Origin: an uncultured Gammaproteobacteria bacterium
GTDB taxonomy: Bacteria; Patescibacteriota; Patescibacteriia; CAZGFX01
NCBI GenBank assembly: GCA_964524845.1
Contig: CAZGFX010000002.1
Span: 85,389-149,388 of the forward strand
DNA: 64,000 nucleotides
Reading direction: 5' to 3'
How positions within the stretch are numbered: the first letter of the stretch is position 1; the number at the start of each line of letters is the position of its first letter. Under the pieces are notes generated by a model. That model searched no databases, had not been told where the DNA came from, and saw only the letters and a list, made by a program, of their open reading frames with translations. Shown piece by piece: positions 22,424-61,190 of this stretch. Both the position numbers and the translations under genes were made by a program.

Positions 22424-24316
22424 TTATCTTTTATGAATCGAGATTGGTTGACGTGAAAGCGCCTCTTTAAGGCTTATGGGAGCGGGTTGTGTCACTTGTT
22501 GTAATGGTGTTTGTTGTTCGGTGTGTTCTTTCTCACGAGAAACAGGAGACACACCAAAACGAGAAGGTGTTTTTGATAATAGTGGATTTCCCATTGATGG
22601 ATTTCCCATTGATGGTGATTGGGACGGCTTGTTTCTTTCTCCTTTTGTAAAAGAGTTTTCGCGATCTATAATATCTGTAATACGATGTTCTATTGCGTTT
22701 GGATTTTCCATTATCGCTTTTTGACGTCTGTATACAGCAAGACAATCTTTACAGAGCACTGGGCGTTTCCCGTCTGGTTTAAATGGTACCATTGTTTCAT
22801 TTCCACACCCATCGCATTTAGTTTCAAACATTTCTTTTTGTGCTGGCAAATCGCCCGTTTCTGTTTGTGGATATTGTGCGCTTTGCGTATTTTGTGAAAA
22901 AGAAGAATATTGACTAGGTGCTTGTATGTGCACTTCTTGTGTTTTTTCAAAAACAGGTTGCTTGGGAGATGTTTGTGTCGAATAAGGCGATGGTTCCTCT
23001 ACCTTGTGTACAACGGCTGTACTTAATATGCCACCAGGAGCATGTGCCCACAAACGAATACCCTCTTCAACCTCAGCACGCGGTCGAGCATATTTCTTTC
23101 TGGTGAGTTCTGTAATTATTTTTTCCGTTTCAACGCTTTTTGGAATTTTAAATGTGTTTAGTGTGTTTGCTGAAAACGCATCAGACGTAACCCCATTCAC
23201 CATAAGCTTAATATAACATGTTGCCAACTTGAGATTTACAAGGTCGTTTTTCGTAAAATTAGGAGCAAACTCTTTCTCAAGGAAATCAGCATCATCGGCA
23301 CCAACTCGAAATGAAAGAAGTGTTCCAACATTTCCGAACACTGCGTTGCGAACCTCATCAATAAGCTGTTGAATATACTGATGCGCTATAATAAGATTCA
23401 AACGATATTTTCGGGCTTCTGATAATATTCCAGCGAAAGACTCTGTAGCAAAGTTTTGAAACTCATCAACATATAAATAAAAATCCGGACGTTCGTTTTC
23501 ATTAACAATATCAACCCTGCTCATAGCCGCCATCTGAAGCTGTGTAATAATCATAGCACCAAGAAGTGCTGAATTATCCTCGCCAATTCTTCCTTTTGAA
23601 AGATTAACGATTAGAACCATCTTATTATCCATGATATGACGAATATCGACAGGGCTTTTTATCTGGCCAACGATGTTCCTCATCATTGTTGATGATAGAA
23701 ATTGTCCGACTTTGTTCTGTATAGGAGCCGTTGCTTCAGCTTTGAGTTTGTCCGGATATTTAGGATACTCATCAAGCCAAAATGTTCTTACCGATGTGTT
23801 CTTTACATATTGTAATACATTTTTACGATAATCATTATCAACCAATATTCTCATGATTCCAAGCATCGTACTTTCGGGATATTCCAAAAGAGCGAGAATA
23901 GCATTTCGAAGCACATACTCAAGGCGAGGACCCCATGAATCAGCCCATATCTTTTTAAATACAGCGACAAGTCCTGATGCGACCAGATGGCATTGGGCAG
24001 GATTATGAACGTGCATAACATTAAAACCTATTGGAAACTCCGTATCTGAAGGATTAAAATACACAATATCTTCATATCTGTTTGGCGGAATCATTTTAAT
24101 AATATCTTCGGCATATTCTCCGTGCGGATCAATCAGGGCAACACCCTCTCCATTATAAATATCCTGTATAATCATGTTTTTGATAAGAGTCGTTTTTCCC
24201 ATACCCGTCTTACCAACAATATAAAAATGCTTGCGACGATCTTCTCGCCTAATACCAAACTTCACCGATTTGTTTCGATAATTTGTTTCAGCGAATATAT
24301 TTAAATCTTTTGGCAT
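22424..24316 (-). CDS. VirD4/TraD-like coupling-protein-type P-loop ATPase (FtsK-HerA superfamily) with C-terminal C4 zinc ribbon
   Basis: Walker A GKTGMGKTT, Walker B-like FYLYVDEFQNF; C-terminal CDGCGNE...CKDCL plus low-complexity tail. Start set to ATG at 24316 (track start 24367 is TTG and overlaps upstream gene). Confidence 0.65.
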   Translation of the reverse strand: MPKDLNIFAETNYRNKSVKFGIRREDRRKHFYIVGKTGMGKTTLIKNMIIQDIYNGEGVALIDPHGEYAEDIIKMIPPNRYEDIVYFNPSDTEFPIGFNVMHVHNPAQCHLVASGLVAVFKKIWADSWGPRLEYVLRNAILALLEYPESTMLGIMRILVDNDYRKNVLQYVKNTSVRTFWLDEYPKYPDKLKAEATAPIQNKVGQFLSSTMMRNIVGQIKSPVDIRHIMDNKMVLIVNLSKGRIGEDNSALLGAMIITQLQMAAMSRVDIVNENERPDFYLYVDEFQNFATESFAGILSEARKYRLNLIIAHQYIQQLIDEVRNAVFGNVGTLLSFRVGADDADFLEKEFAPNFTKNDLVNLKLATCYIKLMVNGVTSDAFSANTLNTFKIPKSVETEKIITELTRKKYARPRAEVEEGIRLWAHAPGGILSTAVVHKVEEPSPYSTQTSPKQPVFEKTQEVHIQAPSQYSSFSQNTQSAQYPQTETGDLPAQKEMFETKCDGCGNETMVPFKPDGKRPVLCKDCLAVYRRQKAIMENPNAIEHRITDIIDRENSFTKGERNKPSQSPSMGNPSMGNPLLSKTPSRFGVSPVSREKEHTEQQTPLQQVTQPAPISLKEALSRQPISIHKR

Positions 24317-46292: not shown

Positions 46293-46754
46293 TTATTCAT
46301 CATGCGCTGACAAAGATGTCAGCTTATGCCGAAAAGTCCAAAACTTGTTACCAAAAAAATTGACTAATACCGTACAAGCAACCGCGCACAGCTTCGCTAT
46401 AATAACATGATATTCCAATGTTCCGTGTATAACATATAAAACAAGTTCAGATACACCTAGTCCGAGAAGCGCGACAATAAAAAATTTAGGTATTTCATAA
46501 TAAGCTTTGCCGGAAGATCGAAATGTAAATTTTCTGTTCAATGTAAAACTCAATAATACAGAAAAAATAAAAGAAACTATGTTTGTAATCAGATAATAAT
46601 ATTGAAAAAAAGAAACCGAAAACACAAGAAGCCAAAAAACTCCGATATCAAATAACGTTACAATGCCACCAATAAAAGAAAACATTATAAAATCTCCGAA
46701 TACCGAATCACGAACAATTCGATACGGCTTCCACAATCTTAATCTCTCCACCAT
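46293..46754 (-). CDS. GtrA family membrane protein
   Basis: 153 aa, 4 TM, FIGGIVTLFDIGVFWLL...NRKFTFRS pattern typical of GtrA. Confidence 0.65.
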   Translation of the reverse strand: MVERLRLWKPYRIVRDSVFGDFIMFSFIGGIVTLFDIGVFWLLVFSVSFFQYYYLITNIVSFIFSVLLSFTLNRKFTFRSSGKAYYEIPKFFIVALLGLGVSELVLYVIHGTLEYHVIIAKLCAVACTVLVNFFGNKFWTFRHKLTSLSAHDE

Positions 46755-48760
46755 ACACCATCTCTCAAGTGAATTAGATCAAAATCCCAAACATTTTTTA
46801 TCGGAACCTTATCATACCTATCAAAAAAATTTGTTGATATGACTCCGTCTCGGTTTGAAGGAAGAGTGAATACTACATCTTGTTTATCATCAAGAACACC
46901 TCTTAAATAATCAACTTTTTTACTATCATTTATCACGTCGTCTTTTAAATACTCATAAGCCGATGAATAATTATGTAGCCTATTCCAAGAATATGAGTAT
47001 AATTTATCATCTGTTAAATATAATCGTTTTCCATATCTATTATTTCTTCCGCTTTCATATTGAACCAATCCACTTCCATCCGCGTTCGAAACCGCCATAT
47101 CTTTTTTCCAGCCCTCTCTCGCATCACTTAAGATAACTGCTACCTCTGGATTTCCATCAGCATTTAAATCTCTTACATCAACATCATAACCGGCTATTAA
47201 TTTAGGAGATAGAGCGAACCACTGCGCATAAACTTTACCAAACATATCAAATACTCTTACATGAGGACCTCCTCCTCTATATGGCACTGTAACAATTAAA
47301 TCCTTCTCCCACTTACCACCTAATTGTCTTCCGAGTGGACCGTTTCTCCTTATCGTATCAACACGAACACCTCCGATAAAAAGATCTCCATACGCCTGAA
47401 ACCTTGTTCGAAATATGCCATCGTATTCAAACACATCAACAATTGATTTCCTTCCATTAATATATGAAACGGCTATTTCATCAACTCCGTCTGCATCGAA
47501 ATCTCCGGTCGTCATCTGCACATCATCTAGTGCCCCTCGATATATTAAAAATGATTGTATGATATTTCCTTCTGTCGTTACTATGCGTAAATAATACTTT
47601 CCGTTTTCTTGCACAATAACAGCAAGGACCGTGTGCGGAACAATTGTAATTGCTTTGATTATTGAATCAACGATATTGAGGGCTCTCACCGTCGTTCCTT
47701 CTGATCCTAGTGGTGTCGCATTATTAATCAAAAGATCTCTGATTTCAGAGTTTGTATAATATGGATACTCCGACATTATATACGCGGCGGCGGCGGAAAC
47801 AAACCCAGTAGCAAGAGACGTTCCCCACCATCCTGTTCCTACAGTATCTCGAAGCGTCGAACGTTCATATTCGTACGTAAGCGTTGAAATAATTTGTTCA
47901 CCGATTGCATAAATATCAACGCACGTATCTCCAACATTTGAAAAAACTGACACGGATTTTGTTTTTGCTATAGAACCAACCCCAATAACTATATTATCAG
48001 AAAAAACTGAACACACCGGATATAATGGCTTGTCGTTTAAATTTCTTCTTACAGCACCATCTTTGTATTCTCCGTTTCCAGCCGCCGCTACTATGAGTAC
48101 ACCGTGATCCCATGCATATTGAATGGCTTTTTTGAGCTCAAGACTTTCCTTTCCTGATATAAAACTCATGTTTATTACTCTCGCTCCATGATCTACTGCG
48201 TAATATATTCCTTTGATAACTGCATTAATATCTCCTATACCGTTCGCGGCGACAGCGCGAATAGGCATTATTTTTATATTTCCTTTTCCAACTCCTACCG
48301 TCCCGTTTCCATTGTGTTCGGCCGCGATAATTCCAGCAATAAAAGTTCCGTGATGCATGGCTTCGTATGATGCACCAGTTGATGTAACAGGAGATGGATT
48401 GCTATCGTTATCAGCAAAATCCCATCCATTATAATCATCTGTATATCCATTATAATCATCATCTTTCCCGTTTCCTGGTATTTCACGATAATTATGCCAG
48501 ATATTTTTCATGAGATCAGGATGATCAAGGTCAACCCCGGAATCAATAACAGCAACAACAACTTGATTTACACCATTATAATCAGTCCAAACCTTCTCCA
48601 TTTCCATCGTACGTAAATAATCCATGTTCACATACATCGAATCGCCTGGTATATATGTTTTTATTATTTGTACATCTTGCGCCTCAGCAAACACACCAAA
48701 AAACATTCCTATACAAATAGGAATTATAAGAAGTTTTCGTGCTATCTCATGCCATTTCAC
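46739..48760 (-). CDS. secreted subtilisin-like serine protease (peptidase S8) with C-terminal FG-GAP-like repeats
   Basis: Signal peptide; catalytic triad regions VAVIDSGVDLDHPDL, HGTFIAGIIAA, GTSLATGFVSAAAAYI; C-terminal DFDADGVDEIAV / RDLNADGNPEVAV repeats. GTG start. Confidence 0.85.
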   Translation of the reverse strand: MKWHEIARKLLIIPICIGMFFGVFAEAQDVQIIKTYIPGDSMYVNMDYLRTMEMEKVWTDYNGVNQVVVAVIDSGVDLDHPDLMKNIWHNYREIPGNGKDDDYNGYTDDYNGWDFADNDSNPSPVTSTGASYEAMHHGTFIAGIIAAEHNGNGTVGVGKGNIKIMPIRAVAANGIGDINAVIKGIYYAVDHGARVINMSFISGKESLELKKAIQYAWDHGVLIVAAAGNGEYKDGAVRRNLNDKPLYPVCSVFSDNIVIGVGSIAKTKSVSVFSNVGDTCVDIYAIGEQIISTLTYEYERSTLRDTVGTGWWGTSLATGFVSAAAAYIMSEYPYYTNSEIRDLLINNATPLGSEGTTVRALNIVDSIIKAITIVPHTVLAVIVQENGKYYLRIVTTEGNIIQSFLIYRGALDDVQMTTGDFDADGVDEIAVSYINGRKSIVDVFEYDGIFRTRFQAYGDLFIGGVRVDTIRRNGPLGRQLGGKWEKDLIVTVPYRGGGPHVRVFDMFGKVYAQWFALSPKLIAGYDVDVRDLNADGNPEVAVILSDAREGWKKDMAVSNADGSGLVQYESGRNNRYGKRLYLTDDKLYSYSWNRLHNYSSAYEYLKDDVINDSKKVDYLRGVLDDKQDVVFTLPSNRDGVISTNFFDRYDKVPIKNVWDFDLIHLRDGVWWRD

Positions 48761-48822
48761 AATATTTAAACATTTAAATCTTCGTGCCTAGTATAAAATA
48801 TTTCCCTAATTTAAGCAATGCA

Positions 48823-49046
48823 CATTGTAACCTCGACACCATATTGTCACCCCGAACGAAGTGAGGGGTTGTCACCTCGACCCGCCTCGTCACCTCGAAC
48901 TAAGTGAGGGGCCTCACCAACACTGTCACCTAGACACCACATTGTCATCCTTAACTGACATTGTCATCCTTAACCCACATTGTCATCCTTAACTGACACT
49001 GTCATCCTTAACTGACACTGTCATCCTGAACTTGTTTCAGGATCTT
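48823..49046. repeat. degenerate tandem array of about 10 short units, core TTGTCAYCYYGAAC, ending in a palindromic hairpin
   Basis: Read directly: units such as ATTGTCACCCCGAACGAAGTGAGGGG, TTGTCACCTCGAC, and 4 near-identical ACTGTCATCCTTAACTGAC copies (48939-49016), then ATCCTGAA-CTTGT-TTCAGGAT. Confidence 0.75.
49017..49045. repeat. left 29-bp inverted repeat flanking the GIY-YIG gene
   Basis: ACTGTCATCCTGAACTTGTTTCAGGATCT; exact reverse complement of 49402-49430. Confidence 0.85.
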
Positions 49047-49059
49047 CCATGATACATTG

Positions 49060-49335
49060 TCATAATAACAAATCTTTGAGTTCCGGATTATACTCTTTTA
49101 TCAAATTCCATTTCCACTTTCTGTGCCAACGTTTTAATTGCTTTTCTCTTTCTAGTGCATCATATATGGACTCGTATTCTTCTGTGAACACTAATTTCGT
49201 CAAATGATATCTACGCGTAAACACGCCTCCTTTCTTGTTTCTATGAAACATCACACGACGAATAATATCGTTAGTGACACCAATATATAAGGTTGTGTTG
49301 GTATAATTTGTTAAGATATAAACGTAGTAAGACAT
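49060..49335 (-). CDS. GIY-YIG nuclease family protein (small, UPF0213-like)
   Basis: 91 aa; YVYILTN...LYIGVTNDIIRRVMFH...GG.FTRRY...E.EKQLKRW pattern of the GIY-YIG fold. Confidence 0.8.
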   Translation of the reverse strand: MSYYVYILTNYTNTTLYIGVTNDIIRRVMFHRNKKGGVFTRRYHLTKLVFTEEYESIYDALEREKQLKRWHRKWKWNLIKEYNPELKDLLL

Positions 49336-49401
49336 AATATATCTATATCACTTGTCTTTTAGAAACTAAAGCGCCGTCTGTGAATTACTTAGTTACACGG
49401 T

Positions 49402-49430
49402 AGATCCTGAAACAAGTTCAGGATGACAGT
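49402..49430. repeat. right 29-bp inverted repeat flanking the GIY-YIG gene
   Basis: AGATCCTGAAACAAGTTCAGGATGACAGT; exact reverse complement of 49017-49045. Confidence 0.85.
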
Positions 49431-49460
49431 AATAATAAGTTGTCGGCCTCCCCCAAAACA

Positions 49461-49494
49461 AAAACTCCCCCGCCCGAAGGCAAGGGGAGTTTTT
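49461..49494 (-). terminator. rho-independent terminator of the large surface-protein gene
   Basis: GC-rich hairpin ACTCCCC-(GCC-CGAA-GGC)-GGGGAGT with U-run on the minus transcript, 30 nt after the stop. Confidence 0.6.
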
Positions 49495-49525
49495 AGTAAC
49501 GATACTAAACGAGGTACAAATTCGG

Positions 49526-52500
49526 TTAGTACGTAGTAACAGCACCGAGAACAGGCAACGACGGTGAGAATGTAGAATTAACAGTTGTTGAGTTGTCGAA
49601 CGCTGAGATATACGAGTAAGGAACAGGGCCTGCGGTTGCAGGGAATGGGCCAGCTGAACCCTCGAGACGACTAGAAAGCGTCACATTAGATTGAACCGGA
49701 GCTGGTGCATTAGCACCATCCATCTTGATGTTTGAGGTGTTAGCATAGAGTCTGAACTCTTTTGAATTACCCTGAGTAATCGTAATTGCTGATGTAAGCG
49801 CGAACTGTACCGTCTGAGAAGAGACAGTAGCAGTAAGTGTAGCTGGGATCGCCACATCACTTGAATCCTTAAGAACGTAACCGGTAACTTTACAATTTGT
49901 GATTGTAACACCGCTACACGCTGGTACGATATCACCATCGAACGAAGAGAAAGGACCGTTTGAACCGGAGATAGTAAATGTGATTTGAGTCATAGTGAGA
50001 TCTCTTCCACCATCAGCCTTAATGCTGTATTTGCCAATCATTTGATTAGCCTGTGGAGCTAGTGTCGTATTTGACATTGTGCTTGTCATAACAGCAACAA
50101 CATCATCGGCTCTGTGTACTCTTATCGCATGCTTAGCATTTGTATAGAGAGCACCAGCTGTTCCAGCTGCGTTTTCTGTCATGTTAATAACATAAACACC
50201 TGCCGTACCATAAGCCGTATCTCCAATTGTTGGAGCTGTTGTAAGAGTTGATAATGCGGCACCGATTGCAACGCCTGCTGCATTTGTAACAACAGCGAAG
50301 CCTGTGGATGCGGTTCCTACAGTATCAGCTACGAACACTAGGTCACCTGGTTCATAAACTACTTCAGCATTTGTGCTTGTATTATCAGCAAGACCCAGTC
50401 TTGAGATTCTATAAGCACTTGACCACGTAGTTGTACCAGCAGCGCTGTTGAAAATAACAGTACCACCGTTAAAATCAGCTACGTTTGTTGTAATGCCATA
50501 CGCTGGATATGTAACACCAGCAGTAGCACCTGTAGAATAGATGAACTGGCCACTAACAGAAGATTGTGTTCCGTTTGGCAAGAATGTATCAGCTGCAGTA
50601 AGAGTACCTGCAACTTCCTGCGACAAGTTTGATACGAGACCGACTGAGTCGATGTCGAATATAACAGGCGCGATCAGTTGAGTAGCAGCTGCATTTGTAG
50701 CAAGAGCTTGAATAGCAGCGGCATCAGCCTTTACAGTCAATACTTTTGAGCTTCCCTTCTCAACTGAAACAGTTAAACCAGAGAAGCTTGCTTCGTATCG
50801 AGCTGAAGTGCTGTTGTACTGCAATGGCTGTTCGCCAATCTTCGTAGCGCCATCATAGAGATATACTCTTGTGATGTTCTTATCGAAGTTGAGGCCTCCC
50901 ATGACAATCTTACTGATCTTCGCACCTTCAACTAGGTTGGAAGTGAATTTGAAGTCAGCGAGGTTTGCCATAGTCTGGCTTGCAACGATGATAGACGAAG
51001 ACACTGCGGATGTCGGATCATACGAGAAGCTTAGTAAGCCACCCGTCGTTGACATCGTCATGATCTGAAGATCGGTTGCAGCTGCAGTCAAAGACTTGTT
51101 TGATGGTACTGCGACACCAGTAGCTGCTGCCGTAAGCCTCAATGAAGCATTATCAGAAACACCAGATGAAGCAATAGAACCAACAACCCGAATTTGAACA
51201 GATGCATTTGCAGCTAGGTTCAATTCTCCAGAAACAGAGAATGTTGGTGAGCTAGCCGGAGTCGACTGTGTATCACCAATCTTGACCCATGCTGAACCTG
51301 ACCACTTGTAAAGCATAACGTTGGAAATTTTGTTTCCAGCAAATGCATTTGTATTCGCGCCAGTTGGGAATGTATTTCCAGCTGTTCGTGTACCAATGGT
51401 AAAGTTCGAAACATTTGCACCCTCAGCAGCAGCCGTTGAAAGAACGAACTGTGCTAGAGGAGCGGCTGTAGAACCGGTAACGATAGTAGTGCTTGGCAAT
51501 GAGTTATCAATAGCAATATTCATTGAAGAATCTTCTACTGACAATGTGTTTGCTGGAACACCAGATGTATGAAGACTAACACCCGCTCCTACAGAAGTAC
51601 TACCATTTGTTTGGTTAAGATTGCTTGAAAGAAGTTTAACTTCCCATCCATTCAAAACACCCTTAATCTGACTATTTATAGGGAAGTGAGTAGAATCGGA
51701 AGATTCGCTCTTCAATTGAGCAACTAATTTAACCTGTTTTGTCTGGCCGGCAGGAATCGTGAGATAAGGAGACAATGTGTACTTAACAACATAATATGTA
51801 TTTGCGGCAATAGATCCTTTCGGAACATTTACGTTTGATACAGAAGATGCTATTGAGTTATTGTTTCCATCCCATAGACCAGCTGTGTCAAGATTTCTGT
51901 TTGTACCAGCTGTTCCATCGGTTGCGTAACCAACATAGATTACACGAACCTCTGTGTCTTCACCAGCAGCAACAAAATCATATACACCTATCGTTTGGTT
52001 TGAACCTGCAGCCACCTTATTTGAAGGAGACGATGGAGATAAACCTAATGACTGTGTACCCTGATTAATGTTGTGTAATGAGATATTATCTGATGAGGAA
52101 GTAATTTTATCACCAATTGGGAAAGTTGTGTCATTGCTTGTATCAACTTTAGGCAAGAAACTTACGCCGGTCTCAAGACCACGAAGCGTTATGTCTTCTG
52201 CTTGTTCTACAACAAGTTGAAGTGTTCTGCTTGTCCCACCAATAACATCAGCTTTTACAGTCAATGTTACGGTATTGCCTTCTGCCATTGACAATCCGGT
52301 CGTCGTAATGACAGCCTGATTGTTTACATTAAGCGACGAAACAGAACCAATAAGAGCACCGGTTGATTCGTTATATACTTTTATATTCTGTATATCAGAT
52401 GCAGTTGCAGTACCTCTGTTTGTAAGAACGATTCGATCTATTGCAATCTGCTCGTTAGTTACTTCAAAGATTTTGAACTGCGCAATAACTTCTCCTGTGT

Positions 52501-53716
52501 CGCCAACATCAAGATTCTGAGAATAATTTCCTACAGAACCGATGCGGGCACTTCCAAGTAAGGTGCTACCATCAATAATAGACATTTCATTGCCTCTTAT
52601 TGGAAATGTTCCACGAACAGTACCACCAGAAATAGTGATGCCTGTAGCAGACTCAATTCCGAGCGCAATTGTACCATTATTATTACCTGCCTCTACAATG
52701 TCAGCAGCTAGATAAACAGTAGTTGTCTGACCGGCAGTCAATGCGATAGGATCGCTTGTGAAGTTAATAGTTGCATAACCATTATACAAGCTTACCGTAC
52801 CACCATGACGGTTGTTGTTTGAATCAAGAATTTTGACACCTTCAAGTATATTATCACTTGATACGCCATATCTCTTGATTGTAACTCCAGTCAAGTTTAC
52901 CGCAGTGCTTGCGCCGTTGGTAACGTTGATTGCAGTCATTTTAAAGTTACCAGCTCCATCAGGTACAGTCATAGAAGCTGGAGTGCTTGAAGCCAATGAG
53001 AATGTGATATCTCCTGAAATAACTGGAGAACCACCACCTGTTGGATAATCCAACAAAGTAGTCTCAAGGCCTGTGATAGAAGTACCGATATTGAATGCAG
53101 ATACTGCGCCAGCAGTAACTTCATGTACAAACTCGTTTCTGAACATGTTTGCAGTGAATGCAGACTCAGAAGCGAATGGGCGGCGTTTGCTACCCTCAAT
53201 ATAGTACTTAGTACCATCTACTTTTATCAATTGACCGGTTGGGAACTGGTTCACCGTAGAAATTGCGGTGCCGGTATGATAAGTAGCGGCGAATGTATTC
53301 GGATTAATATCTTTGATCCACTGATTCCAGTTTGATCCGAATAATGAAGCTGCGATTGTTTCAGAGCCGACGTGGCGAATTGAAGCGCCATTCTCGACTG
53401 CATAGGTCTCGGAAAAATCCGGAACCTTAACCATCCAAGTACCAGAGCGAACGCCCATAGTACCAGCTAGATGGAATGCAGCGAAGTCAGCATCAGAAAC
53501 AGTCTGCACAGCATCGAAATTTTCATATCGAGAAAAGAACTCGACTTGTGAAGGGAAAGTGTACAAACCATTGTTTCCGCCTACGAAATATACGGTCGTT
53601 GAAGATGCTTTCTTAACGAGAGCTCCTTCATTGTAAGTAGCTGCTGCTACATCTGTGTAGATGAGAAGCGATGCCACTACCGTGAACAAGGCAAAAACTT
53701 TTCTGAATTTACTCAT
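49526..53716 (-). CDS. large secreted Thr/Ser/Ala/Gly-rich surface protein (putative S-layer or adhesin-like)
   Basis: 1396 aa; signal peptide MSKFRKVFALFTVVASLLIYTDVAAA; N-terminal pair of about 85-aa repeats, then long low-complexity region; no LPXTG. Gene is much more GC-rich than surroundings. Confidence 0.7.
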   Translation of the reverse strand: MSKFRKVFALFTVVASLLIYTDVAAATYNEGALVKKASSTTVYFVGGNNGLYTFPSQVEFFSRYENFDAVQTVSDADFAAFHLAGTMGVRSGTWMVKVPDFSETYAVENGASIRHVGSETIAASLFGSNWNQWIKDINPNTFAATYHTGTAISTVNQFPTGQLIKVDGTKYYIEGSKRRPFASESAFTANMFRNEFVHEVTAGAVSAFNIGTSITGLETTLLDYPTGGGSPVISGDITFSLASSTPASMTVPDGAGNFKMTAINVTNGASTAVNLTGVTIKRYGVSSDNILEGVKILDSNNNRHGGTVSLYNGYATINFTSDPIALTAGQTTTVYLAADIVEAGNNNGTIALGIESATGITISGGTVRGTFPIRGNEMSIIDGSTLLGSARIGSVGNYSQNLDVGDTGEVIAQFKIFEVTNEQIAIDRIVLTNRGTATASDIQNIKVYNESTGALIGSVSSLNVNNQAVITTTGLSMAEGNTVTLTVKADVIGGTSRTLQLVVEQAEDITLRGLETGVSFLPKVDTSNDTTFPIGDKITSSSDNISLHNINQGTQSLGLSPSSPSNKVAAGSNQTIGVYDFVAAGEDTEVRVIYVGYATDGTAGTNRNLDTAGLWDGNNNSIASSVSNVNVPKGSIAANTYYVVKYTLSPYLTIPAGQTKQVKLVAQLKSESSDSTHFPINSQIKGVLNGWEVKLLSSNLNQTNGSTSVGAGVSLHTSGVPANTLSVEDSSMNIAIDNSLPSTTIVTGSTAAPLAQFVLSTAAAEGANVSNFTIGTRTAGNTFPTGANTNAFAGNKISNVMLYKWSGSAWVKIGDTQSTPASSPTFSVSGELNLAANASVQIRVVGSIASSGVSDNASLRLTAAATGVAVPSNKSLTAAATDLQIMTMSTTGGLLSFSYDPTSAVSSSIIVASQTMANLADFKFTSNLVEGAKISKIVMGGLNFDKNITRVYLYDGATKIGEQPLQYNSTSARYEASFSGLTVSVEKGSSKVLTVKADAAAIQALATNAAATQLIAPVIFDIDSVGLVSNLSQEVAGTLTAADTFLPNGTQSSVSGQFIYSTGATAGVTYPAYGITTNVADFNGGTVIFNSAAGTTTWSSAYRISRLGLADNTSTNAEVVYEPGDLVFVADTVGTASTGFAVVTNAAGVAIGAALSTLTTAPTIGDTAYGTAGVYVINMTENAAGTAGALYTNAKHAIRVHRADDVVAVMTSTMSNTTLAPQANQMIGKYSIKADGGRDLTMTQITFTISGSNGPFSSFDGDIVPACSGVTITNCKVTGYVLKDSSDVAIPATLTATVSSQTVQFALTSAITITQGNSKEFRLYANTSNIKMDGANAPAPVQSNVTLSSRLEGSAGPFPATAGPVPYSYISAFDNSTTVNSTFSPSLPVLGAVTTY

Positions 53717-60835: not shown

Positions 60836-60839
60836 TTCG

Positions 60840-60916
60840 ATCGTCGCTTCGCTCCTCACTCATGGCGGGGCCATTCTTTCTATATAATCGTCGCTTCGCT
60901 CCTCACTCATGGCGGG
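60840..60916. repeat. two perfect 30-bp direct repeats 47 bp apart, just 3' of tRNA-Glu
   Basis: ATCGTCGCTTCGCTCCTCACTCATGGCGGG at 60840-60869 and 60887-60916; region is much more GC-rich than flanks. Confidence 0.8.
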
Positions 60917-60988
60917 TCACGTCGCTTGCGAGTAACGTGACGGGGCCACTCGGTCAACCCCCGCAAAGCGGGATCCCGCCTTGCGGGA

Positions 60989-61022
60989 ATTGTCACCTCG
61001 AATCTGCATTGTCACCTCGAAC
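60989..61022. repeat. two tandem ATTGTCACCTCGAA units, same family as the 48823-49046 array
   Basis: ATTGTCACCTCGAATCTGC / ATTGTCACCTCGAACGAAAGTG followed by hairpin CCTGAC-GCAT-GTCAGG (61032-61047), echoing the hairpin at 49022-49042. Confidence 0.7.
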
Positions 61023-61190
61023 GAAAGTGCCTGTCCTGACGCATGTCAGGAAGAGGTCTCGCCCACTACACGTCGCTTTGCTCATCATCAACCGTAACCA
61101 TTTTCACAATCGCATTTTTATAGGTGCGGTTTTTTGTTTCTAAATAAAAAACTCTCTTCTTTTTTATAGATAGAGAGTTTGAATTATTAT

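Follow-up and report, generated by a model that had tools for sequence, protein, structure and literature searches.

The closest described system is that of SsnA, a 94-aa GIY-YIG protein of Neisseria meningitidis that belongs to CDD family cd10448 (Chenal et al., Nat Commun 2025, PMC11893778). The binding of SsnA to the NTS hairpin CGTCATTCCCGCGMAVGCGGGAATCYRG is restricted to one of the two strands and requires that strand to be single-stranded; double-stranded DNA is not bound. Cleavage is likewise confined to single-stranded DNA and to that strand, and occurs a few nucleotides upstream of GTCA. (From the oligonucleotide numbering, with its 20-nt product and its key bases G26 and C49, we deduce that the cut lies 5 nt before the G of GTCA.) The recognition site has the form GTCA-stem-loop-stem-C, in which the GTC before the palindrome controls cleavage, the C immediately after the palindrome controls binding, and the loop is not needed. 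Splitting the site into a 5' half and a 3' half on separate strands does not prevent cleavage, extensions at the loop position are tolerated, and the mutants Y6A, Y17A, and E64A are inactive. The authors remark on the IS-like layout NTS-ssnA-NTS, note that the Neisseria NTS has the palindrome dRS3 (ATTCCC-N8-GGGAAT) as its core, and introduce the term Ssn-related motifs (SRMs) for the broader class of hairpins. Tandem half-site arrays are absent from that paper, in which the word 'tandem' has 0 occurrences (PMC11893778), and in the literature we found neither a follow-up on Ssn arrays nor an earlier description of the hairpin classes considered below.

Other repeat systems offer partial parallels to the locus described here. 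The REP sequences and BIMEs with their RAYT enzymes, which are related to IS200/IS605, also consist of short extragenic palindromes that are recognized as single-stranded hairpins, also place the enzyme gene between two inverted palindromes, and also form composite intergenic clusters; however, BIMEs alternate whole REPs and are not tandem half REPs, whereas the present array is made mostly of half sites. The NIMEs of Neisseria are repeat units of 50-150 bp bounded by whole copies of dRS3, whereas the units of the present array measure 17-25 nt and are half sites for the most part. Plasmid iterons share with it direct repeats of about 19-22 bp, but they differ in that this locus has no initiator gene or origin context and each of its units is half of a hairpin site that is recognized as single-stranded DNA.

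The Ssn-family gene and its hairpins

The window (the whole stretch of DNA that was analyzed, 64,000 nucleotides) contains at positions 49060..49335, on the - strand, a gene for a 91-aa single-domain GIY-YIG nuclease, which we designate ssn. Its match to Pfam PF01541 (E = 3e-15) spans residues 3-76, and the protein contains no other domain. In 29 aligned homologues, the window protein among them, the residues Y6, Y17, and E64 do not vary. A tblastn search of PLSDB, which led to two N. gonorrhoeae chromosomes filed as plasmids, provided an orthologue of ssnA for comparison; once translated, it shares 47% identity with the window protein in an ungapped alignment of 85 aa (E = 5e-25), and it has NTS hairpins on both sides. 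(The orthologue is unannotated in that record, and its start looks disrupted.) Other homologues, with 48-53% identity to the window protein, adjoin canonical NTS cores (loci L049, L063, L065, and L073).

In total, more than 900 homologues were found, distributed over many phyla and often located on very short contigs; their lengths are 87-157 aa, for most of them about 90-115, and the closest, P0002, is 75% identical. The C-terminus of several homologues runs into the downstream hairpin, so that tails such as DPETSSG and MLKQVQHD derive from the translation of GATCCTGAAACAAGTTCAGGATGA and ATGCTGAAACAAGTTCAGCATGAC, respectively. NCBIfam gave no match for the nuclease, and the only PDB sequences that it matched were UPF0213 proteins (E = 2e-6). 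The neighboring genes encode an S8 peptidase (the subtilase), GtrA, glycosyltransferases, and a 1396-aa surface protein.

The gene lies within a 414-bp hairpin-gene-hairpin unit (49017-49430), which is positioned between the terminator of the surface-protein gene and the subtilase gene. The ends of this unit are 35-nt terminal inverted repeats that are 94% complementary to each other (pair I1), the left one at 49017..49051 on the + strand (z = -2.5 for the DNA fold) and the right one at 49396..49430 on the - strand (z = -4.9). The left repeat contains the full SRM hairpin TGTCATCCTGAACTTGTTTCAGGATC, with an 8-bp stem, a 5-nt loop, and then C, and the right repeat carries the same hairpin. Thus, each arm of the unit has TGTCA, the 8-bp stem ATCCTGAA/TTCAGGAT, the loop CTTGT, and then C, and in both arms the TGTCA end points outward. 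We refer to this type of hairpin as class 2. A classical IS or MITE was considered and rejected: the 35-nt inverted repeats are there, but no transposase is present and no target-site duplication was found around 49017-49430, where the flanks read AACTGAC (left) and AATAATA (right). A REP/RAYT element was rejected as well, as the gene between the hairpins is of the GIY-YIG type and no Y1 (HUH) transposase is present. The enzyme being a GIY-YIG hydrolase rather than a Y1 (HUH) transposase, covalent strand-transfer chemistry is not expected.

Hairpins are very few in the window, where they form two patches in 64 kb. The second patch, downstream of tRNA-Glu at 60991-61058, had been pointed out in a first-pass annotation of the window as related to the first, and the relationship holds. 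It is composed of a hemi-unit, TGTCACCTCGAATCTGCAT (60991..61009, + strand), which starts 19 nt upstream of a hairpin of the form ACCTC...GAGGT then C (61010..61058, + strand). Both are of a second type, class 1, and the hairpin has a further 7-bp hairpin nested in its loop (61034-61051).

The locus therefore resembles the published system in its protein, which is small, has GIY-YIG as its only domain, and shares the catalytic residues, and in the position of the gene between inverted hairpins, clustered intergenically, that begin with (H)GTCA and end with C. On the other hand, the host has a Patescibacteria-like genome with very few hairpins, and the stems and loops of the window (ATCCTGAA with CTTGT; ACCCC with the loop GAACGAAGTGA) fall outside the published degenerate pattern, HGTCWYN(0-2)YYVSBRHN(0-5)WNVSBRGN(0-2)RNCYNB, which has no match in the window. 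That pattern, which was built on 29 genomes, covers less than the family; it matches only 18 of 80 homologous loci. Based on the identity to the SsnA orthologue, the homologues that adjoin NTS cores, and the flanking hairpins with GTCA outward, we file the window gene as a member of the Ssn family and its hairpins as SRMs of divergent sequence.

Composition of the array

The left end of the hairpin-gene-hairpin unit is the last unit of a tandem array. The first-pass annotation had described about ten short units that merge into the left repeat of the nuclease gene, and this is borne out by a parse of the sequence and by Tandem Repeats Finder: ten head-to-tail units occupy 48826-49045, the tenth being the hairpin within the left one of the 35-nt inverted repeats. 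The units start at 48826, 48845, 48870, 48887, 48924, 48943, 48962, 48981, 49000, and 49019. Tandem Repeats Finder returns three overlapping rows, with a period of 19 (48939-49032, 4.9 copies, 92% matches), a period of 43 (48825-48911, 2 copies), and a super-period of 38 nt (48920-49032). As had been noted, the array is richer in GC than its surroundings (46-58% versus 27-36% in the flanks); its top strand is C-rich and its GC skew strongly negative. The location given for it, upstream of the subtilase gene, is correct and incomplete, since the nuclease gene, too, has the array next to it, on its downstream side. The window has 8 copies of the core TGTCAYCYYNRAC (six in the array, one in the right inverted repeat, and one at 61010), versus 0.04 expected from shuffles. 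The idea of a single type of core unit had to be given up, as the units fall into two sequence classes. They are SRMs and 5' halves of SRMs, situated beside the Ssn-family gene: three full SRM-type hairpins, representing both classes, and seven hemi-SRMs, by which we mean units that have a leader poor in G, followed by TGTCA and the 5' arm, but neither the 3' arm nor the binding cytosine.

The left part of the array, all of it read on the + strand, is of class 1, which has a short stem of 4-5 bp and the loop GAACGAAGTGA. It begins with a degenerate hemi-unit that consists of a 5' half only (TGTAACCTCGACACCATAT, 48826..48844); this unit lies within the 43-nt period and is 92% identical over 13 nt to 48869-48881 (family D6). 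There follows the hairpin TGTCACCCCGAACGAAGTGAGGGGT (48845..48869), with the 5-bp stem ACCCC/GGGGT and the 11-nt loop GAACGAAGTGA, which is probably decayed, as it has no C after the stem. After another hemi-unit of family D6 (TGTCACCTCGACCCGCC, 48870..48886) comes a second hairpin, TCGTCACCTCGAACTAAGTGAGGGG with the trailing CCTCACCAACAC (48887..48923), which has a 4-bp stem, CCTC/GAGG, and a weak predicted fold, and which is 91% identical to 48846-48868 (family D3). The array thus holds two full class-1 copies, TGTCACCCCGAACGAAGTGAGGGGT and the 91% identical one, each with a TGTCACCTCGAC-type half copy ahead of it. Class-1 stems are thermodynamically weak. Nevertheless, the class is real: a perfect 5-bp stem encloses 85 of the 105 copies of its loop in the fetched loci, and the stems covary, with eight different stem pairs around constant loops.

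The fifth unit, also on the + strand, is the hemi-unit TGTCACCTAGACACCACAT (48924..48942, family D1), which we count with class 1 although it is intermediate between the two classes. Next on that strand are four class-2 hemi-units of 19 nt (48943..49018, families D1 and D2). These are the short units that the first-pass annotation called nearly identical, and they are: each is TGTCATCCTTAAC with a 6-nt leader. They contain TGTCA, the 5' arm, and the first base of the loop, and nothing of the 3' arm. The leaders of the four are TGACAT, CCACAT, TGACAC, and TGACAC, and the TGTCA...TGACA mini-palindromes that had been seen in several units are present in 3 of the 4. All four have a T (TCCTTAAC) at a position where the full hairpin has G. 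The order of leaders in the window, CCACAT, TGACAT, CCACAT, TGACAC, TGACAC, produces the 38-nt super-period. Taken together, the private T and this super-period argue that the four class-2 units were copied from each other and not each from a full site, and class-2 units have been duplicated two at a time at least once. The difference between TGACA and CCACA leaders, which involves two adjacent bases, may reflect the correction of a quasi-palindrome. The outer units are decayed.

The first-pass annotation judged the array not to be CRISPR-like, and we likewise reject a CRISPR: the units abut, and the leaders of 6-7 nt are themselves repeated and are not unique spacers. Rfam gave no family at the gathering threshold in the whole window, and none at E values up to 10 in 48700-49600. 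An assembly artefact was also rejected, since a single read is longer than the array, whose sequence is identical in two assemblies, the second being the Logan assembly of run SRR12133403 (L001); furthermore, comparable arrays are found in isolate and complete genomes (L041, L037, L049, and L071).

Half-site runs at other loci

An unbiased census of 205 full hairpins in 80 genome loci, selected by protein, shows that such runs of half sites are general. With half units defined by up to 2 mismatches in 11 nt and a spacing of 16-25 nt, 5' hemi-units are seen upstream of 18 of the 205 hairpins (32 units), i.e. about 9%, while 3' halves are seen downstream of only 2 (7 units); the bias of 18 to 2 has a binomial P of 4e-4. 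The frequency of 5' half units is alike at hairpins that flank a gene (13/147) and at solo hairpins (5/58). In the 80 loci, GTCA faces outward in the upstream hairpin at 55 of 58 loci and in the downstream hairpin at 43 of 52. Half-site runs are thus directional, lying on the 5' side, with a period that peaks at 19-21 nt, and they are present in many bacterial phyla. Examples are five 19-nt units in an alphaproteobacterial locus (L024), five units of 18-19 nt in Dehalococcoidia (L049), and three arrays in Colwellia (L041); L009, L039, and L054 have half-unit runs as well. A scan of metagenomes for the half-plus-full pattern gave at least 120 stretches, in which the longest arrays reach about nine units. 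As far as we have found, this directional stutter of half sites is a so far undescribed feature of the Ssn/SRM system.

The units also tend to end near the hairpin apex. The match between unit and hairpin ends 10-14 nt past the G of GTCA; in 39 of 59 arrays this point lies no more than about 2 nt from the apex, and in most arrays the adjacent unit retains GTC and the whole 5' arm (r >= 11 in 46 of 59). On the left, decay of the outermost units is too advanced for a reliable estimate of where the duplicated segment begins. Leaders are poor in G (10% G and 38% C, versus about 20% each in the distant flank), and G is similarly depleted at positions -1 to -11 (10-11 nt) upstream of all full hairpins. 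This shared depletion indicates that a unit is the natural 5' flank of a site plus its 5' half. Within arrays, the GTCA-arm core is less variable than the leader, a comparison that is partly circular because the units had been identified by means of the core.

The arrays appear to be labile. The collections contained no close relative of the window genome (the best subtilase homologue outside it is 37% identical), and a composite inverted-repeat element present in several loci provides a comparison of copies. In this element, two head-to-head hairpins have half units between them, numbering 1 in L096, 2 in L106, 2 in L158, about 9 in L170, and 4 in L173, and each copy of the element has leaders of its own, uniform throughout that copy. 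These differences in copy number and leader indicate that arrays arise and change quickly and locally.

Origin and possible role of the half sites

The array is a cluster of SRMs with hemi-SRMs on the cleavage side, and on balance we think it probable that the hemi-SRMs were seeded there by local duplication and expanded by slippage; they are probably inert by themselves. In this process a first hemi-unit would form at the 5' side of a full hairpin during the repair of a lesion, either a nick that Ssn makes a few nucleotides 5' of GTCA or a stall at the folded hairpin. Repair synthesis would recopy the leader, GTCA, and the 5' arm and would abort near the apex; the resulting short direct repeat could then grow or shrink by slippage or unequal exchange. 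The trigger, as we infer it, would be the Ssn nick or the stalling at the hairpin. The bias to the 5' side favors the nick, because a palindrome alone should yield both halves equally, and so does the fact that the favored side is the one on which the published enzyme cuts. A point against the reading as a whole is that the hairpin of the window is outside the search pattern of the published work. Several points speak against the nick: typical leaders measure 6-9 nt versus the deduced 5, so that unit starts do not fall exactly at the cut; some junctions have plain microhomology (TTTC in L191), as simple slippage predicts; and, because the four class-2 units of the window derive from each other, most of the growth here needs no nuclease.

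These last points lead to the strongest of the alternatives, that hairpin-driven replication slippage alone is responsible. Here the palindrome would stall the polymerase and the nascent end would realign on short direct repeats, giving an ordinary minisatellite in whose formation no nuclease takes part. The microhomology in L191 (with its 22-nt unit), the multi-unit super-periods of the window (38 and 43 nt) and of L126, L135, and L155, the private T common to the four window units, and the equal frequency of arrays at solo and gene-flanking hairpins all fit this explanation. However, a symmetric palindrome predicts runs of 3' halves as often as runs of 5' halves, where the census has 18 hairpins to 2; the preferred strand and side coincide with the published cut position; and the period stays within a narrow 19-21 nt despite unrelated stem sequences. 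We therefore regard slippage as the sole cause as rather unlikely, while retaining it, in the preferred reading, as the means by which seeded units multiply.

With respect to function, the first-pass annotation had suggested that the units might be target sites for the adjacent nuclease. This suggestion comes closest to the evidence, as the units are built on the recognition hairpin of the adjacent Ssn-family gene, but the seven short units, which retain the determinants of the cleavage side, are only half sites. According to the published mutagenesis (PMC11893778), hemi-units, having neither the 3' arm nor the binding cytosine, should not be bound alone; they are probably inert by themselves, and only full hairpins would be expected to be bound. 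In single-stranded DNA, hemi-units could pair with a single 3' arm as alternative 5' halves, and in the window such pairing has a mismatch in the middle of the stem (TCCTTAAC versus TCCTGAAC). A more active role would be that of a functional half-site array, in which alternative 5' halves provide several registers of cleavage or serve as decoys that tune cutting near the gene. The cleavage of split 5' and 3' halves and the tolerance of extensions at the loop position (PMC11893778) are in keeping with such a role, as is the retention of GTC and the whole 5' arm (r >= 11 in 46/59 arrays); the low variability of the GTCA-arm core relative to the leader, being partly circular, adds little weight. 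On the other side are the mid-stem mismatch to the 3' arm in all four window units, the decay of the outer units, the free variation of unit number and leader sequence among copies of one element, and the presence of such units at only about 9% of hairpins, which together make a functional array improbable.

It had also been proposed that the units are scars of repeated insertion and excision. Scars are plausible only in another sense, as what repeated local duplications may leave behind on the cleavage side; as footprints of cassette insertion and excision they are not, given that arrays are equally frequent at solo hairpins and 3' halves are rare. In the latter case, each half unit would be the remnant of a hairpin that was split by the insertion of a hairpin or cassette into its loop, or the product of imprecise excision. 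The hairpin nested in a loop at 61010-61058, the mirrored 5' and 3' halves in L071, L026, and L085, and the TGTCA-N8-TGACA of three window units, which resembles a left end fused to a right end, can be read this way, although the difference between TGACA and CCACA leaders may be explained as quasi-palindrome correction. But the matching 3' halves predicted downstream are rare, and none is seen to the right of either window hairpin; there is no target-site duplication around 49017-49430; and we know of no strand transfer by GIY-YIG hydrolases. Nested insertion and excision explains a few nested cases and not the general scarcity of 3' halves, and as an account of the array we consider it very unlikely.

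Finally, the proposal of an iteron-like or regulatory double-stranded array in the promoter region of the subtilase gene, with a spacing of about two helical turns, draws on the regular 19-21 nt spacing and the location upstream of that gene, but deserves almost no credence and was rejected in its iteron form, because the neighbors include no replication initiator, origin, or regulator gene, arrays of this kind turn up in unrelated settings, wherever there is an SRM hairpin, and the published enzyme does not bind double-stranded DNA (PMC11893778).

Judged by its sequence, the locus is a divergent new member of the Ssn system, and its array is explained for the most part by a system that was published in 2025. 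The published SRM pattern misses whole classes of hairpins, those with ATCCTGAA/CTTGT and those with the loop GAACGAAGTGA, both of which are common in metagenomes. Natural arrays of 5' halves beside a single 3' half resemble the split-site substrates that are cleaved in vitro, which is relevant to the use of Ssn nucleases as tools for single-stranded DNA. Ssn nucleases were described only in 2025, with a role in the transformation of Neisseria. The half-site stutter, directional and quantised, extends from Patescibacteria to Neisseria and may be a footprint of the enzyme in vivo. We suggest, tentatively, that runs of hemi-SRMs could be a general signature of the Ssn/SRM system that records repeated nicking and repair in vivo, and perhaps a source of new sites or registers. 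If true, they would be the first trace of Ssn activity to be read from genomes and would hint at the way in which the hairpins multiply to hundreds of copies.

The stutter hypothesis is testable in Neisseria, where the canonical dRS3/NTS sites carry hemi-units too. Beside the N. gonorrhoeae ssnA orthologue, the sequence reads ...GCGGGAATGACG and then AAGAGTTGCGGGAATGATGG, i.e. a half-site array of the canonical type, and a hemi-NTS together with an NTS is found in 25 contigs of a viral collection, several of which have Correia-type ends of Neisseria.

Genes beside the array and the ends of the ssn cassette

The ten-unit array (48826-49045) is flanked on one side by a subtilase gene (46739-48760) whose start is ambiguous. 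The ORF list begins it at a GTG at 48760, giving a protein of 673 aa; the public gene calls give 655 aa and therefore place the start at an ATG near 48706, which in turn makes for a wider intergenic region around the array. Also in this neighborhood is the gene for a 1396-aa predicted surface protein (49526-53716), which has a signal-like N-terminus and for which there was no Pfam match. (The window also contains a 15-nt perfect tandem repeat, TGGATTTCCCATTGA, present in 2.2 copies at 22583-22615, which has no relation to the array.)

Within the cassette, the hairpin-gene-hairpin unit built around the GIY-YIG nuclease gene ssn, a sixth copy of ACATTGTCAT lies at 49054-49063 and overlaps the ssn stop codon, where the coding strand reads TTATTATGACAATGT. 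The ORF of many ssn homologues continues into the hairpin, yielding tails such as DPETSSG or MLKQVQHD; the ssn of the window differs in this respect. Immediately beyond the right inverted repeat, TTGTCGGCCTCCCCC (49431-49460) bears a faint likeness to the class-1 half unit, the 5' cleavage-side half of a class-1 recognition hairpin. This could mean that the cassette was inserted within an older class-1 cluster, but the likeness is too slight for a confident assignment.

Hairpins and repeats downstream of tRNA-Glu

Downstream of tRNA-Glu, positions 60836-60990 form a GC-rich island in an otherwise AT-rich genome. This patch contains two copies of CGTCGCTTCGCTCCTCACTCATGGCGGG (~60842-60925), one hairpin of the form GTCACGT...ACGTGAC, and two of the form CCCGC...GCGGG; the reverse strand of the CGTCGCTTCGCTCCTCACTCATGGCGGG repeat carries the loop motif GAGCGAAGCGA, which is known from class-1 hairpins elsewhere. 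The repeat and hairpins may represent decayed sites of other Ssn types.

The loop of the class-1 hairpin at 61010-61058 itself contains a 7-bp hairpin, TCCTGAC GCAT GTCAGGA (61034-61051). Comparable nesting is seen at the comparison loci L071, L026, and L085, with mirrored 5' and 3' halves in some cases.

Related arrangements at other loci

PLSDB files two 2.17-Mb N. gonorrhoeae chromosomes as plasmids, and the ssnA orthologue they hold, in the stretch 380-1050 of locus L202 (NZ_CP119142.1), carries no annotation. Because the nearest ATG is out of frame with the N-terminal region, this orthologue may be a pseudogene or may use a non-ATG start codon.

A composite MITE-like element is present in five metagenome loci (L096, L106, L158, L170, and L173). 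Its inverted ends read TTGAACCTTCTGATTAAT... and ...AATTGTTCAGAGCATTCAA, and it contains two SRM hairpins, the Ssn recognition hairpins, arranged head-to-head with a half-unit array of variable size between them; at its right end in L106 there is a 17-nt tandem repeat, TTCAGAGCATTCAATTG, in three copies.
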